The position numbers and the translations under genes are program-made. Below the pieces are notes generated by a model that was not told the DNA's origin, did no database searches, and saw only the letters and a list, made by a program, of their open reading frames with translations. Positions 16,478 to 22,779 of a DNA stretch of 64,000 nt are shown in pieces. The stretch is taken from positions 322 to 64,321 of the forward strand of contig JBOGTG010000148.1 of the NCBI GenBank assembly GCA_050692175.1, in the 5' to 3' direction. The stretch comes from Candidatus Limnocylindria bacterium. Lineage in GTDB: Bacteria > Chloroflexota > Limnocylindria > P2-11E. Within the stretch, counting starts at the first letter, position 1. Every line of letters starts with the position of its first letter.

Positions 16478-16575
16478 GACTTCAAAAAGCCTTGACCCCG
16501 ACCGCGCGCCGGTGCGACGATGCGCTACGCATGGGAACTCCCCGGCAACCCGTTCGGGGAGGTGGGGTATGGAGG

Positions 16576-17856
16576 ATGCGCGCCGCGCGCGCGACCACGG
16601 TCGCGCTGGTCGTCGGCGCGTTCCTGGGATGTCTCGGGCAGCCCGCATATGCGGACGACCCGGTCGCCTCAGCGCTCAAGCGCAAGGAAGAGCTCGAGCG
16701 ATCCGTCCAGATCTCCCGTGCGAACGCCGAGCGGTACCAGGCCGTCGCCAACCAGTTCCAGGCGGTCGTGAATCAGACCAATGCCAGGATCGCGGATCTC
16801 GCGACCAAGCAGGCCAACGCGCAGTCCGAGGCCGACCAGCTCTTCTACCAGATCCAGATCGCCGAGGAGCAGCTCGCCCTCGTCACGTTCCAGCTCGACG
16901 AGACGCGCGCGCTCACGGACTCACTGAAAGCCGAAGCCGCCCATGAACAGAAGCAGCTCGCGACGCGCGAGGATCTCTACGGGCGCCATCTCCGGACGAC
17001 CTACCGGCAGGCCCTCATCAGCCCGCTCGAGATGCTTCTCTCCTCCTCGTCCCTCACCGAGTTCGCGAACCGTCTGCAAGCCATGATCTTCATCAACCGC
17101 CAGGACGTGAAGCTCGCAAAGGAGATCCGCACCCTCCGGGCCGACACCCAATGGAAGCAGGACCAGGCCTCGGTCAAGGAACAGGAGATCCTGGGCCTCT
17201 CCGACCAGATCACCACACAGCGGACTCAACTCGCAACCTCAAAGGAGCGCTACGACAGGCTCGTCGCCGAGGCGCAGGCGGCGATCGACTCGGAGGCGGC
17301 GGCCCGAGCGGCGGCGGCGCGAAACAAACAGAACGCGCAAGGCCAGGTCAGTCAGACCAACCGCACGACCGCGGACCTCGAGCGGCAGCTCGACCAAGCG
17401 GAGGCGCAGTACGAGTACCTCGCGGCGCAGGCGGCGGGCAGCAGCGGGCTCGGCCTGTTCAACGGCGCGAAGCTCGCAATGTGGCCGCTCCGCGGACCGA
17501 TCACGTCAGGCTTCGGCCCGCGCTGGGGCGGCTTCCACAACGGCATCGACATCGCGCAACCGAAGTACACCCCGATCCGCGCGGCGTCGGCCGGCAAGGT
17601 GGTCACCGTCGGTCGCCCGTACCTCGCGTATGGCGATACCGCCGTCGTCGTGGTCATCGCTCACGGCTTCAACTTCTCGACGCTCTACGGGCACCTCGAC
17701 GATCTGCGCTGGCCGCCCGTCTCCGTCGGGCAGACCGTCTCCGCCGGCCAGATCATCGCGTACGTCGGGATGACGGGGTTCACGACCGGTCCGCACCTGC
17801 ACTTCATGACGATCGCGGACGGTCGCGCAGTCAGCCCGATGATCTACCTGCCGTAG
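16576..17856 (+). CDS. secreted coiled-coil M23 (LytM) peptidase, EnvC/PcsB/RipC-like FtsEX partner
   Basis: ATG 16576 follows GGGGAGGTGGGG. The protein has a signal peptide (MRAARATTVALVVGAFLGCLGQPAYA), about 270 aa of heptad-rich Q/A/E sequence, and an M23 domain with HNGID (HxxxD) and HLH (HxH) intact. The upstream part of the 764-aa track ORF overlaps ftsX and was rejected. Confidence 0.85.
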   Translation: MRAARATTVALVVGAFLGCLGQPAYADDPVASALKRKEELERSVQISRANAERYQAVANQFQAVVNQTNARIADLATKQANAQSEADQLFYQIQIAEEQLALVTFQLDETRALTDSLKAEAAHEQKQLATREDLYGRHLRTTYRQALISPLEMLLSSSSLTEFANRLQAMIFINRQDVKLAKEIRTLRADTQWKQDQASVKEQEILGLSDQITTQRTQLATSKERYDRLVAEAQAAIDSEAAARAAAARNKQNAQGQVSQTNRTTADLERQLDQAEAQYEYLAAQAAGSSGLGLFNGAKLAMWPLRGPITSGFGPRWGGFHNGIDIAQPKYTPIRAASAGKVVTVGRPYLAYGDTAVVVVIAHGFNFSTLYGHLDDLRWPPVSVGQTVSAGQIIAYVGMTGFTTGPHLHFMTIADGRAVSPMIYLP

Positions 17857-17939
17857 CGGCCAGCCGCTACTGCCTTCTTCGCTTCCGCATTCCGCGACGA
17901 CAACCACGCCCACGCTTCCTTAGTGAATCGGCCGCGACA

Positions 17940-17967
17940 TTGACGCGAATCCGCGGCCATGTAGCAT
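17940..17967 (+). promoter_or_regulatory. sigma70-like promoter candidate (TTGACG-16 nt-TAGCAT)
   Basis: -35 TTGACG at 17940..17945 and -10 TAGCAT at 17962..17967, in a locally AT-rich patch. Confidence 0.35.
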
Positions 17968-17969
17968 CA

Positions 17970-18149
17970 TTTTCGAAAGAAAGGAGGTGATGTGGAGTGG
18001 GCGATGCCAGTGGGAATCCAAAGACCCATGTGAGCTCACTTCAGCCTTTCGTAATGAAACCAACTGAGGTGATCGCGCACTAACGCGTTGGGTCTTTGGT
18101 GACCCGGCAGAGTGAGAGCGGCGGCAGAGATGCCGCCGCTCTTCGTTTT
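17970..18149 (+). other. small structured transcript bearing overlapping sORFs (function unknown)
   Basis: AGAAAGGAGGTGAT (17977..17990) is a 14-nt complement of the conserved 16S 3' tail. Candidate sORFs: ATG 17990..18067 (25 aa, MWSGRCQWESKDPCELTSAFRNETN), GTG 17997..18083 (28 aa) and GTG 17992..18033 (13 aa). Nested stems are 18018..18028/18089..18099 (11 bp) and 18036..18044/18064..18072 (9 bp). The unit ends in a strong terminator. Confidence 0.4.
18115..18149 (+). terminator. intrinsic terminator
   Basis: A perfect 12-bp stem, AGAGCGGCGGCA / TGCCGCCGCTCT, with a GAGA loop, followed by TCGTTTT. Confidence 0.75.
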
Positions 18150-18169
18150 CACCGCCTAATCTCCTCGCC

Positions 18170-18667
18170 ATGCCATCCCGAAAGACCGACGCGCCGCCTG
18201 AGCCGGAGCGCCAGGTCCAGCTTGCCGAGAACCGGAAAGCCCGCTTCGACTATCAGATCGAAGCGCGGCTCGAGGCTGGCATCTCACTACGGGGTACCGA
18301 GATCAAATCGCTCCGCGCGGGTCACGCCAACCTGCGCGACGGGTACGCGCGCGTCGAAAACGGCGAAGTGTGGCTGCGAAACGTGCACATCGCGCCGTGG
18401 GCTAACTCAGCGCACGCCAATCACGATCCCCTGCGCCCGCGCAAGCTCCTCCTGCACAGAGGCGAAATTGGACAGCTCGTCGGGACGATCGCTCAGAAGG
18501 GCTACACGCTCGTCCCGCTGCGGATGTACATCAAACACGGGCGAGCCAAGGTCGAGCTGGGCATCGCGCGCGGCCGCAAGCGCTACGACAAGCGGCAGGT
18601 GATCAAGGAGCGCGAGGCCACCCGCGAGATGGACGCCGCCATCCGGAGGCGCGTAGGTCGGGGCTAA
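18170..18667 (+). CDS. smpB: SsrA-binding protein SmpB
   Basis: NRKARFDYQIE..GISLRGTEIKSLR..NVHIAPW..HDPLRPRKLLLHR is the canonical SmpB sequence pattern. Confidence 0.93.
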   Translation: MPSRKTDAPPEPERQVQLAENRKARFDYQIEARLEAGISLRGTEIKSLRAGHANLRDGYARVENGEVWLRNVHIAPWANSAHANHDPLRPRKLLLHRGEIGQLVGTIAQKGYTLVPLRMYIKHGRAKVELGIARGRKRYDKRQVIKEREATREMDAAIRRRVGRG

Positions 18668-18671
18668 CGCG

Positions 18672-20225
18672 CTATTCGCCGAATGCCGGTGCCGCCTCGG
18701 CTTCCGGCTGGCGGGCCCGCTCGGTGCGGCCCCGCAGCGGGACCTCCTGCAGGAAGAGCGACGCGATCACCGCGACGCCGGCAACGGCGGCGGCGATCAG
18801 GAACACGTCATGGAGTGACCCGGCGAGCGCGCCGCGGATGGCGACGAGCAGCTGCGGCGGGATCTGCTGCACCGCGGCCGGGTCGAAGATCGCTTCCGCG
18901 TTGCCTCCCGACGGAATGGCGCCTGCGAGCCGTGACGGGACCGCGGCTGCGATCTTCACCGAGAGCTCCTGCGCCAGGACTGCGCCGAGTATCGCGACAC
19001 CGACGGTGCTGCCGATGTTCCGCCAGAACTGGATCTGGCTCGAGACGACGCCGAGGTATCTCACGTCGACGGCGCTCTGGGTCGCGTTCAGGTACAGCGG
19101 CATGCCGACGCCCACACCGAGCCCGACCAGGACGAGGGCCCGGACGACGTCGATCTCGGGCGTGCCAACGTTGACCTGCGCGAGAAGCAGGAGGCCGATC
19201 ACGAGGATCACGGCACCGACCGTCCCGAGGTACCGATAGCGCTTCATCCGTACCATGAGCTGCCCGGTGACGATGCTCGAGGCGATGAGGCCGACCATGA
19301 GGGGCGTGATGAGGAGACCCGCGTTGGTCGCGGCGAGGCCAAGCACGCCCTGGTAGACGAGGCTCACGAAGATGATCGCGCCGAACATCGCGAAGCCAAG
19401 AAGGAATCCGACGACTGTCGACACGGCGAACGTCGGGTTCTTCCAGAGCTCGAACGGGACGACCGGGTGCGGCGTGCGCCTCTCGATCACGAAGAAGATC
19501 ACCGCCATCACGACGGACGCGATCAGCAGGCCCATGACCTCGGGAGAGGCGAAGTCGTGGTCGCGTGTGATGGAGAGGGCGACGAGGAGCGGAACGATCG
19601 TCGCCGTCAGCGCGAACGCGCCGGCGAAGTCGATGTCGCGCCACGACGCCGAGTGCTTGACCGAGGGCAGCGTCACGAACACGACCGCGATCGCCAGCAA
19701 ACCGACCGGTACGTTCACGTAGAAGACCCACCGCCAGCTGAGGCTGTCAGTGAGGTACCCGCCGACGACCGGACCCACCACCGAGGCGATGCCGAAGATC
19801 CCGGCAAAGACACCCTGGAGCTTCGCGCGCTGCGCCGGCGAGTAGAGGTCGCCGATCGTGGCGAAGACACTCGCGAAGAGGACGCCGCCGAAGACGCCCT
19901 GAAGCGCGCGGAAAGCGACGAGCTCGGCAATGTTCTGCGCCTGCCCACAGAGAGCCGACGCGAGGACGAAGCCGATCATCCCCGCGAGGAGGAATGGCTT
20001 TCGTCCGAACAGGTCGCCGAGCTTCCCGGCGATCGGGGTGAGCGTGGTCGACGTTACGAGGTACGCGGTCGCGACCCAGGCGAAGTAGTCGAGGCCGTTC
20101 AGGTCCGCGACGATCTGGGGTAGCGCCGTCCCGACGATCGTCTGGTCGAGGGCGGCAAGGAAGAGCGCGAGAGCGACGCCCACGGTCGCGAGGATCCGCG
20201 CGTTGCGAGTCATCTCACCTGGCAT
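18672..20225 (-). CDS. MFS drug:H+ antiporter, DHA2 (EmrB/QacA-like, 14 TM)
   Basis: 517 aa with an MFS motif (GKLGDLFGRKP) and about 14 hydrophobic segments. It is paired with an upstream MarR gene. Confidence 0.85.
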   Translation of the reverse strand: MPGEMTRNARILATVGVALALFLAALDQTIVGTALPQIVADLNGLDYFAWVATAYLVTSTTLTPIAGKLGDLFGRKPFLLAGMIGFVLASALCGQAQNIAELVAFRALQGVFGGVLFASVFATIGDLYSPAQRAKLQGVFAGIFGIASVVGPVVGGYLTDSLSWRWVFYVNVPVGLLAIAVVFVTLPSVKHSASWRDIDFAGAFALTATIVPLLVALSITRDHDFASPEVMGLLIASVVMAVIFFVIERRTPHPVVPFELWKNPTFAVSTVVGFLLGFAMFGAIIFVSLVYQGVLGLAATNAGLLITPLMVGLIASSIVTGQLMVRMKRYRYLGTVGAVILVIGLLLLAQVNVGTPEIDVVRALVLVGLGVGVGMPLYLNATQSAVDVRYLGVVSSQIQFWRNIGSTVGVAILGAVLAQELSVKIAAAVPSRLAGAIPSGGNAEAIFDPAAVQQIPPQLLVAIRGALAGSLHDVFLIAAAVAGVAVIASLFLQEVPLRGRTERARQPEAEAAPAFGE

Positions 20226-20700
20226 TCGCGGTCTCCTTCGCGACGGCGAAGGCCTCCTGCAGATCGTCGAGCGCGCCCGCGAGGCGCGCTCGCTTTTCGG
20301 CTGACAGCCCGGCGATGACCCTCGCGACGGGTGCTTTCATGAGCTCGCCGACGCGCTCGATCTCGCGCCGGCCGCGGGCCGTGATCTCGACGACGACGAC
20401 GCGCCGGTCGGTCGAATCTTCGGATCGCCGGACCAGGCCGTCGCGCCCGAGCAGATCGACGAGCTCGGAAACGGAGGCCGGCGTCAGCCCACATCGCTGC
20501 GCCAGCTCGCCACTGCGCCGTGGCGACTCGGTCAGCTGCCAGAGGATGCGAGCCCGCTCGAGGCTGATCGCACCGTGCTCGTGCGCGACCTGCGCCGCGA
20601 GCTTCCCGATCCGAGGGACCAGCGAAAGGAGCAGCCCGGCAAGGCGTACGTCCTCGGTCGCCGTTGTGCGCGGCGAGCGCCGCTCGGTCGAGATGGCCAT
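20215..20700 (-). CDS. MarR-family transcriptional regulator
   Basis: A winged-HTH MarR pattern (RILWQLTESPRRSGELAQRCGLTPASVSELVDLLGRDGLVRR..DRRVVVVEIT). It overlaps the MFS start by 11 nt. Confidence 0.85.
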   Translation of the reverse strand: MAISTERRSPRTTATEDVRLAGLLLSLVPRIGKLAAQVAHEHGAISLERARILWQLTESPRRSGELAQRCGLTPASVSELVDLLGRDGLVRRSEDSTDRRVVVVEITARGRREIERVGELMKAPVARVIAGLSAEKRARLAGALDDLQEAFAVAKETANAR

Positions 20701-22306: not shown

Positions 22307-22426
22307 GGACCCAGATCACGTCGCAGGCAGCCGCCGATGCGGCTACAAAACTGTAAGAGGTTCTTCCAGACCTTCGTCGGCCGGCCTGAGTGACTGTGGC
22401 TCCCTCCTGCCGGCCGCCTCGCTCTG

Positions 22427-22779
22427 TGGAGATGGGGGAGGGTCGAACTCCCCGTCCAAGGCCTGCGCGCGGATTGCGTCTACGAGCGTAGTCGGCGATT
22501 TTTGGTCTCGCGGAACGAGGCGCGCACCGACGCGCTTCTCGTTCTCGCCAGGTCGGTTTACTTGAGCCCGCCTACCGACCGATCGGCGGGCCGCAGCTCC
22601 GCTTATATCGCCCTTCCCGGCCCGCGGAGCGGAGACCGGGAGGACGTCTCACTGACTAGGCAGCGAGAGCGTAAGAAGTGTTGGCAGTTGTCTGCCTGCC
22701 GTTCGGATTAACGAGGGGGAACGGCGTTCCTCGGCTCGCGGCGGTCCGTCTGCCTGCCCTGTCGAAACCACGCATCCCC
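22427..22779 (-). ncRNA. ssrA: tmRNA (SsrA)
   Basis: The minus-strand 5' end is GGGGATGCGTGGTTTCGACAGGG. The tag reading frame GCC AAC ACT TCT TAC GCT CTC GCT GCC TAG encodes ANTSYALAA* (22685..22656). The 3' tRNA-like end is GGACGGGGAGTTCGACCCTCCCCCATCTCCA. The acceptor pairs GGGGATG/CATCTCC with G3:U. CCA is not encoded. Confidence 0.9.

Follow-up and report, generated by a model that had tools for sequence, protein, structure and literature searches.

A 64,000-nt stretch of the genome of Candidatus Limnocylindria bacterium (contig JBOGTG010000148.1), called the window here and used for all coordinates, carries directly upstream of smpB what sequence comparison indicates to be a real, conserved and unannotated small gene. 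This unit has its own promoter, a Shine–Dalgarno (SD) sequence almost at the predicted 5′ end of its RNA, a short open reading frame (ORF), an internal mimic of the anti-SD, a second SD-like decoy and an intrinsic terminator. We read it, with moderate confidence, as an autonomous, strongly promoted, translation-gated regulatory RNA. The anatomy, its conservation, the conservation of the reading frame and the helices are established by comparison with relatives. A preliminary description of this region, made from the letters alone, was confirmed as an observation and partly supported as an interpretation; of the three roles it had offered, that of a ribosome-binding small RNA (sRNA) came closest. 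The unit is composed of the following parts.

17940–17967, plus strand: strong, sigma-70-type promoter, with a −35 box TTGACG (17940–17945), a 16-nt spacer and a −10 box TAGCAT (17962–17967).
17975–17991, plus strand: first SD (SD1), GAAAGAAAGGAGGTGAT, the last 14 nt of which are a perfect complement of the 16S rRNA 3′ tail.
17997–18083, plus strand: short ORF with a GTG start, 28 codons (MGDASGNPKTHVSSLQPFVMKPTEVIAH) and a TAA stop, taken from the ORF list.
18007–18107, plus strand: outer helix, long and irregular, pairing GCC/GGG/CCAAAGACCCA with TGGGTCTTTGG/CCC/GGC around the inner hairpin in the minimum-energy fold.
18034–18050, plus strand: anti-SD mimic, GCTCACTTCAGCCTTTC, which resembles the 16S tail; from constrained folds of the window RNA.
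18064–18072, plus strand: second SD-like segment (SD2, the decoy), CTGAGGTGA, partner of the anti-SD mimic; from reading the sequence.
18114–18150, plus strand: intrinsic terminator with a 13-bp stem (18114–18126 with 18131–18143), a GAGA loop and the tail CGTTTTC; from the fold.

We built a covariance model of the unit (R1) and searched with it the genomes of the class Limnocylindria and of other Chloroflexota. R1 found the unit in 277 of 301 Limnocylindria genomes, in 153 of the 154 high-quality ones and in 56 of 57 genera. Full-length copies occur once per genome, extra matches being mostly partial, and the window's genome has exactly one match. A DNA search of 40 relatives detected the unit in nearly all genomes of the same genus at 82–96% identity (one incomplete assembly had no full match) and more weakly in three other genera of the family, two at 78–79% and one in the SD region only; the SD region alone reached further. 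Scanning public genomes for an exact pattern gave 120 loci, nearly all labelled Chloroflexota or Limnocylindria; several of the assemblies concerned come from the Stordalen Mire and grassland studies. Outside the class, R1 matched 61 Chloroflexota genomes, from which we fetched 20 of the best loci and read the 18 distinct matches among them. The same anatomy was present in 16 of these 18: a near-consensus promoter, GAAAGGAGGUGRUG, a GTG or ATG start, a frame of 14–31 codons, an anti-SD and a terminator. The finding of this anatomy next to unrelated genes across the phylum bears out the earlier impression of a self-contained unit.

Two body plans were apparent. The short form, found in most Limnocylindria, is ∼140 nt long and comprises SD1 with the start codon, a loop, the anti-SD CUGCACCACCUC, a stop-codon hairpin, the decoy GGGUGGU and a strong hairpin. 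In the long form of the window's family (∼175 nt), the frame runs through the anti-SD mimic GCUCACUUCAGCCUUUC and the second SD-like segment CUGAGGUGA, with the outer helix around them. A long-form version with the C-terminus ...CTEVMGH (compare ...PTEVIAH in the window) also occurs in another class, and both body plans are therefore old. Some short-form genomes contain extra partial R1 matches that cover the 3′ two-thirds of the unit without SD and start codon (G080:C6:124370–124449, G096:C66:586–680); they could derive from paralogous hairpin domains or from different RNAs whose terminator module is similar. Two further loci, L033 (DASPWX010000019.1) and L083 (DASPHN010000114.1), are typical Limnocylindria units beside ftsX/M23 or smpB but are filed under metagenome-assembled genomes (MAGs) of Bathyarchaeia and Saccharimonadales, and these contigs are probably mis-binned.

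The unit stands out by composition, as had been noted: the GC content is 52–58% over 17900–18150, against 63–77% in the flanks and 67.4% in the whole genome. The promoter was found exactly as first described, and no second promoter-like site occurred in the 1.3 kb from 17500 to 18800 (shuffle mean 0.2). In relatives from the class and from the phylum, the distance between promoter and SD is constant, with −35 boxes reading TTGAC or TTGCG and −10 boxes reading TAGCAT or TAnnAT. Transcription is predicted to start near 17974–17976, giving a very short 5′ leader; SD1 begins ∼10 nt past the −10 box and a few bases past this predicted start. Within SD1, AGAAAGGAGGTGAT (17978–17991) is a 14-nt perfect match to the complement of the 16S tail GGAUCACCUCCUUUCUA. 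The MAG itself has no 16S gene, and we relied on ten relatives for the tail, including a member of the same genus; each of them reads GGAUCACCUCCUUUCUA, and the complementarity proposed from the sequence was thereby confirmed. The 13-mer GAAAGGAGGTGAT occurs a single time on the two strands of the 2.7-Mb genome. The SD1 columns were invariant both in alignment A1, which was collected with a pattern that includes the SD1 motif, and in alignment A2, which holds 51 distinct long-form sequences from the window's family.

The short ORF starts with a GTG ∼8 nt downstream of SD1 and spans the 5′ arm of the outer stem, the anti-SD mimic and SD2. All three frames carry short ORFs here, as the preliminary description had pointed out: one of 28 codons (17997–18083), one of 26 codons from the GTG at 17987 (25 from the ATG at 17990) and one of 13 codons. 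Across the 187 distinct units compared, the start codon lies 15–17 nt after the start of AAGGAGG in 186 (GTG in 181, ATG in 5), and the ORF is 13–31 codons long in the same number; the other two frames vary from 0 to >80 codons. The frame ends in TAG (95), TAA (67) or TGA (24) among 186 units, and TGG was never found at its end. Of 98 distinct short forms, 97 place the anti-SD 20, 23 or 26 nt from the start codon, and the short-form stop codon falls within the loop of a small hairpin. Single inserted bases are tolerated immediately 5′ of the start codon (loci L154, L158 and L159); within the frame, one-base changes are rare among short forms, with 1 case in 98, and common in long forms. Judged by these patterns, the short ORF is very probably translated.

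The same comparison argues against a product that matters as a protein. About a quarter of the long-form units are frameshifted at differing points, so that the second half of the peptide is different and the stop is a TGA inside SD2. Short-form peptides are unrelated sequences of 13–17 residues (MIDSTRSCTTSQEMAV, MSERRRCTTSQEMTV, MSIPIRCTTSRGAGL, MSSSCHATTEAVR and others), whose constant residues (CTTS, ATTE) are only the anti-SD nucleotides read as codons. Because start, frame and stop are kept while the peptide varies and frameshifts are common, selection seems to maintain initiation at the GTG and termination at SD2 or shortly past it, and to maintain no protein. A functional micro-protein gene of 28 residues, for which the strong SD, the conserved start and stop and the C-terminus ...TEVIA[HSVNT] common to most long forms (echoed as CTEVMGH in the other class) could be cited, is in our view highly improbable: the long-form frameshifts are independent and the short-form peptides unrelated, which is not the pattern of purifying selection on a peptide, and an NCBIfam scan of the 28- and 26-residue peptides returned no family. 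Of the small protein gene offered previously, the translated ORF thus stands, and the conserved peptide does not. We also considered an amino-acid-sensing leader, given the Ser/Cys/Thr-rich peptides, and rejected it; the neighbouring genes are unrelated to such pathways, and it is the anti-SD nucleotides that spell the Cys and Thr codons. Separately, the bases after the start codon (codons 2–5) often read GAYAGY(AGU), that is M-x-D-S-S, across many otherwise divergent lineages; what is conserved here may be the initiation region and not the peptide.

The reading frame also weighs on the opposite explanation, a purely non-coding sRNA in which the SD-like 5′ end and the anti-SD are structural or bind a target and the frame is a by-product. 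Nucleotide conservation does exceed what a peptide would need, with third codon positions invariant over the first 10 codons throughout the genus, the helices are well supported (see below), and Rfam lists two look-alikes, Ms_IGR-5 and CC2171, as sRNAs, the former being a separate transcript in Streptomyces (PMC8780764). However, a by-product would hardly be kept in frame across length variants, with GTG and ATG exchanged at its start, an ideal spacing from SD to start, and TAG, TAA or TGA but never TGG at its end in 186 units. We regard this explanation as unlikely.

The predicted structure of the RNA is exceptionally stable (−85.2 kcal/mol, z = −6.35; none of 200 shuffles was as stable). Both of the nested stems first reported are part of the minimum-energy fold, the 11-bp outer stem (18018–18028 with 18089–18099) and the 9-bp inner stem, in which TCACTTCAG (18036–18044) pairs with CTGAGGTGA (18064–18072). 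The proposal that these two segments are an anti-SD mimic and a second SD-like site was borne out. No start codon lies at a usable distance downstream of SD2, and the 20-nt stretch around it contains stops in all three frames (TGA, TGA and TAA). The anti-SD mimic has two partners, SD2 in the minimum-energy fold and SD1 in an alternative, closed fold. For the long form of the window, this closed state costs 5.4 kcal/mol relative to the minimum and SD1 is mostly open (unpaired probability 0.83). In constrained folds from four lineages, the naked RNA favours the closed state, and masking SD1 and the start codon, to imitate a bound 30S subunit, makes the anti-SD re-pair with the decoy.

Conservation and covariation in relatives, to which the preliminary description had looked, were both found, and the helices are supported by base-pair covariation in the alignments. 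In A2, 85.8% of the pair cells were paired, against 35–46% in controls in which the partners were slid by 1–3 columns. The core outer helix was 87.7% paired; four of its pairs had changed on both sides, and one A–U pair is G–C in 14 sequences. Changes on both sides were present in the outer helix and in the terminator; the anti-SD segment is nearly invariant, and the anti-SD/SD2 pairs are 84–100% kept, in a stem that hardly varies. Among 98 distinct short-form sequences (A3), whose fitting to a covariance model flatters the pairing figures, 87.8% of the cells were paired (slid controls, 33–45%) and 27 of 35 pairs had changed on both sides. In the stop-codon hairpin this holds for every one of the five pairs, and in the helix containing the anti-SD/decoy pairing for 9 of 13. 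The closing helix between SD1 and the anti-SD is possible in 96.9% of cells. In one family outside the class, GCCU / AGGC / GUCU stand in place of GUGCAG / CUGCAC / GGGUGG, and because all three segments (GAGGUGAUGCCU / AGGCAUCACCUC / GGGGUGAUGUCU) change together there, the closing helix is supported. A different pairing of SD1 seen in the window fold, with the upstream CAUCAUUUUC, was rejected; the upstream bases overlap the −10 box, are probably untranscribed and vary without compensation in relatives. A riboswitch is unlikely as well, as the middle domain is variable in sequence and length.

The terminator had been described as a perfect 12-bp hairpin 20 nt before the smpB ATG; its presence and the distance to the ATG at 18170 were confirmed, but the stem is 13 bp long in our fold. 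A simple terminator scan did not flag it, since the T-run fails the strict rule of that scan. In A2, the stem is 98.8% paired, and 7 of its 13 pairs have changed on both sides. We searched for an antiterminator by constrained folding in five lineages, with SD1 masked, with SD2 or the decoy masked, and with a ribosome placed at the stop codon, and found none: the terminator hairpin stayed intact in every fold, and no segment competed for its 5′ arm. The stop codon of the short ORF lies ∼30 nt upstream of the hairpin, out of reach for a terminating ribosome. Because no fold disturbs the terminator and the stop is this far upstream, a classical attenuator or antiterminator mechanism is not supported by these models. 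In one family (f4; loci L151, L157, L160 and L162–L164), the tail after the terminator, CUCUUUCCWUKY, forms a second anti-SD-like run. In the L151 minimum-energy fold this run pairs with the 5′-terminal GAAAGGAG, a modelled contact that suggests pairing of the 5′ and 3′ ends in that family.

Downstream of the unit in the window, two further features bear on its relation to smpB.

18157–18162, plus strand: putative −10 box of smpB, TAATCT, a separate promoter from which an mRNA would start at or next to the ATG at 18170.
18170–18667, plus strand: smpB (SsrA-binding protein; NCBIfam NF003843, 208.8 bits; TIGR00086, 184.3 bits), the neighbour, outside the unit.

Throughout Limnocylindria, smpB follows the unit on the same strand in nearly every locus with enough downstream sequence, starting 130–560 nt after the SD. 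Outside the class, none of the units read that share the anatomy adjoins smpB. The genes downstream are instead those for a biotin-protein ligase (birA-like; in five families read, four of them checked with Pfam), greA, moeA, mreB or a hydrolase, and in one family the next gene is convergent; we looked there for a constant upstream gene and found none, the upstream genes being different. Since the same anatomy adjoins unrelated genes elsewhere in the phylum, the unit appears to be an independent gene and no dedicated leader of smpB, and its position next to smpB a trait of Limnocylindria. The birA-like gene, co-oriented just downstream in at least five other Chloroflexota families (L180, L181, L185, L189, L192 and L194), makes up a second recurrent neighbourhood.

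How smpB itself is expressed seems to differ between lineages. In the window, smpB lacks a visible SD, as had been stated. Wherever the SmpB alignment of a long-form relative extends to residue 1, a TAnnnT motif begins 12–14 nt ahead of the smpB start codon, and the spacer that follows it varies in sequence and has no SD (window 18157–18170; L001–L018, L062, L084, L096 and L105). Most likely, smpB in the window's family has its own promoter and a leaderless mRNA, which would explain why an SD is missing. Short forms have a weak U-tract (GUUCGUGCGU), and in some of these genomes the SD of smpB lies 3–15 nt after the hairpin (e.g. L125 and L077) and its start codon as little as 10–25 nt after; with a weak U-tract and smpB this close behind, smpB must be transcribed from the promoter of the unit by read-through in these short-form lineages. 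On this comparison, the link to smpB appears to be real, variable in kind and absent outside the class. In two other Limnocylindria families, transfer-messenger RNA (tmRNA, ssrA) directly follows smpB (L154 846–1021, L156 1–111, L153 953–1001, L151 1–33), so that the unit heads an smpB–ssrA cluster there. In the window's genome, the tmRNA gene lies ∼4 kb from smpB on the minus strand (22426–22779). It was the sole tmRNA detected, and neither ARAGORN nor Rfam RF00023 matched at the unit.

These neighbourhoods matter for the proposal of a dedicated leader-peptide attenuator of smpB, in which stalled or scarce ribosomes on the short ORF would alter read-through of the terminator and the rescue factor would rise under translation trouble. 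The co-oriented position directly upstream of smpB across the class, the smpB–ssrA clusters of two families, the short-form genomes that need smpB to be transcribed through the hairpin, the weakness of the short-form U-tract and the precedent of bmrB–bmrCD (PMC4191407) all speak for it. It is set back by a terminator that persists in every constrained fold and has no competitor for its 5′ arm, by a stop codon that leaves the hairpin unreachable, by the same anatomy beside birA, greA, moeA, mreB or a convergent gene, and by the conserved TAnnnT ∼7 nt from the smpB ATG in the window's family. The attenuating leader envisaged earlier is therefore weakened, with unrelated neighbours elsewhere, no antiterminator and an apparent leaderless promoter of smpB; we give it a minor but not negligible chance.

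We compared the unit with known systems. The Rfam scan called for in the preliminary description yielded no family at threshold, in keeping with its statement that no known RNA family was recognised, and permissive scans of the window and 20 relatives gave sub-threshold look-alikes only. The actinobacterial sRNA Ms_IGR-5 (RF02471) had no match in 16500–20500 at E values up to 10, and none of 81 class genomes exceeded its 45-bit gathering threshold; the best score, 27.2 bits, came from one relative of another family (G033). It nevertheless resembles the unit: its consensus starts with ACACAAGGAAGGAGGUGGU, its 5′ SD pairs with a C-rich segment, and a second hairpin and a GC-rich terminator follow. 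This architecture matches the closed state of the short forms, a resemblance without membership. In Streptomyces avermitilis, Ms_IGR-5 has been seen as a transcript of its own (PMC8780764); the supplements for this species mention neither the Ms_IGR-5 sRNA nor smpB. The Caulobacter and alphaproteobacterial sRNA CC2171 (RF01867), for which there is Northern-blot confirmation in Methylorubrum (bioRxiv 10.1101/2022.01.24.477521), scored 22.4 bits in the window against a threshold of 75 and 16–25 bits in relatives, while its model did find its match in Caulobacter as a control. Its consensus has ...GAAAGGAGGUGA followed by CCA GUG and a GC-rich terminator at the end, but alignment to the window is limited to SD and terminator. 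Both families are look-alikes only.

Other systems share single traits with the unit. The STAB-SD of Bacillus thuringiensis cry3A is an SD-like site near the RNA 5′ end that binds 30S subunits and blocks RNase J1 (PMC4113751). Like it, the unit has a complement of the 16S 3′ end near its (here predicted) RNA 5′ end, and RNase J is encoded in the window's genome (589 bits); unlike the STAB-SD, which directs no initiation, it has a start codon, a conserved frame and a masking anti-SD. The bmrB–bmrCD leader, a known leader-peptide attenuator before drug-response genes (PMC4191407), and erm-type leaders (PMC8274638) likewise have their own promoter, a strong SD, a short frame whose peptide carries little weight, alternative pairings of SD- and anti-SD-like segments and a hairpin before the next gene. 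The unit shares with leader attenuators an upstream short ORF with its own SD, predicted to be translated, and an intrinsic terminator between this ORF and the gene. In contrast to them, it has no antiterminator over the terminator, constrained folds having revealed no competing structure, and its downstream gene, which is smpB within Limnocylindria, differs between lineages of the phylum. It further departs from erm-type attenuation in that SD2, located within the short ORF and ahead of the terminator, serves no gene as ribosome-binding site.

Taken as a translation-gated regulatory RNA, the unit might work as follows. The transcript would begin a few bases 5′ of SD1, with its perfect match of 13–14 nt, and a ribosome would dock there, start at the GTG 8 nt further on and read the 28-codon frame, the act of translation and not the peptide being selected. 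Pairing of the anti-SD mimic with SD1 would close the unit, and its pairing with the SD2 decoy would leave SD1 free, so that capture of SD1 by a ribosome could flip the RNA into the decoy-paired form. The RNA may thereby report or use the availability of free 30S subunits or anti-SD. The 5′-terminal SD could also shield the RNA from RNase J, which would make ribosome binding both the input and a likely means of 5′ protection. The strong intrinsic terminator would close the unit, with an effect exerted on some target or through read-through, and in Limnocylindria the unit would also act as the upstream neighbour or promoter of smpB.

Several points weigh against this reading. Its functional half is what we infer from the anatomy. 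SD1 and the anti-SD are almost invariant within the class, so that covariation neither supports nor tests their pairing there, and the A3 percentages err on the generous side. Most short-form loci were obtained by a pattern search, and as the pattern prescribes the SD and start region, their conservation there is in part built in; the model-based R1 searches are free of this bias. In addition, the class-wide adjacency to smpB, and to smpB–ssrA in two families, could reflect a functional link.

A more general and quite speculative idea, which we consider improbable as it stands, is that the Chloroflexota family, Ms_IGR-5 and CC2171 are members of one widespread but unrecognised group of 'ribosome-gauging' RNAs. 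Each would contain the two partners of the SD/anti-SD pairing, and competition between the mimic and the 30S subunit would measure free ribosomes or free anti-SD. Such RNAs could act through their own translation or stability, or through read-through into adjoining genes, the ribosome-rescue gene smpB being one.

The presence of the unit as a single copy in 153 of 154 good genomes of the class, together with its look-alikes in the phylum, suggests a basic role for an element that is absent from Rfam and from gene annotation; the covariance model provided here can now be used to annotate it. The combination of a docking site, an internal copy of the 16S tail and a decoy is an unusual design and points to the ribosome as the sensed molecule. 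If this is correct, a function would also be suggested for two long-orphaned sRNA families; the unit would offer a handle on how translation is tuned in abundant, mostly uncultured soil bacteria, and it may bear on ribosome rescue in Limnocylindria.

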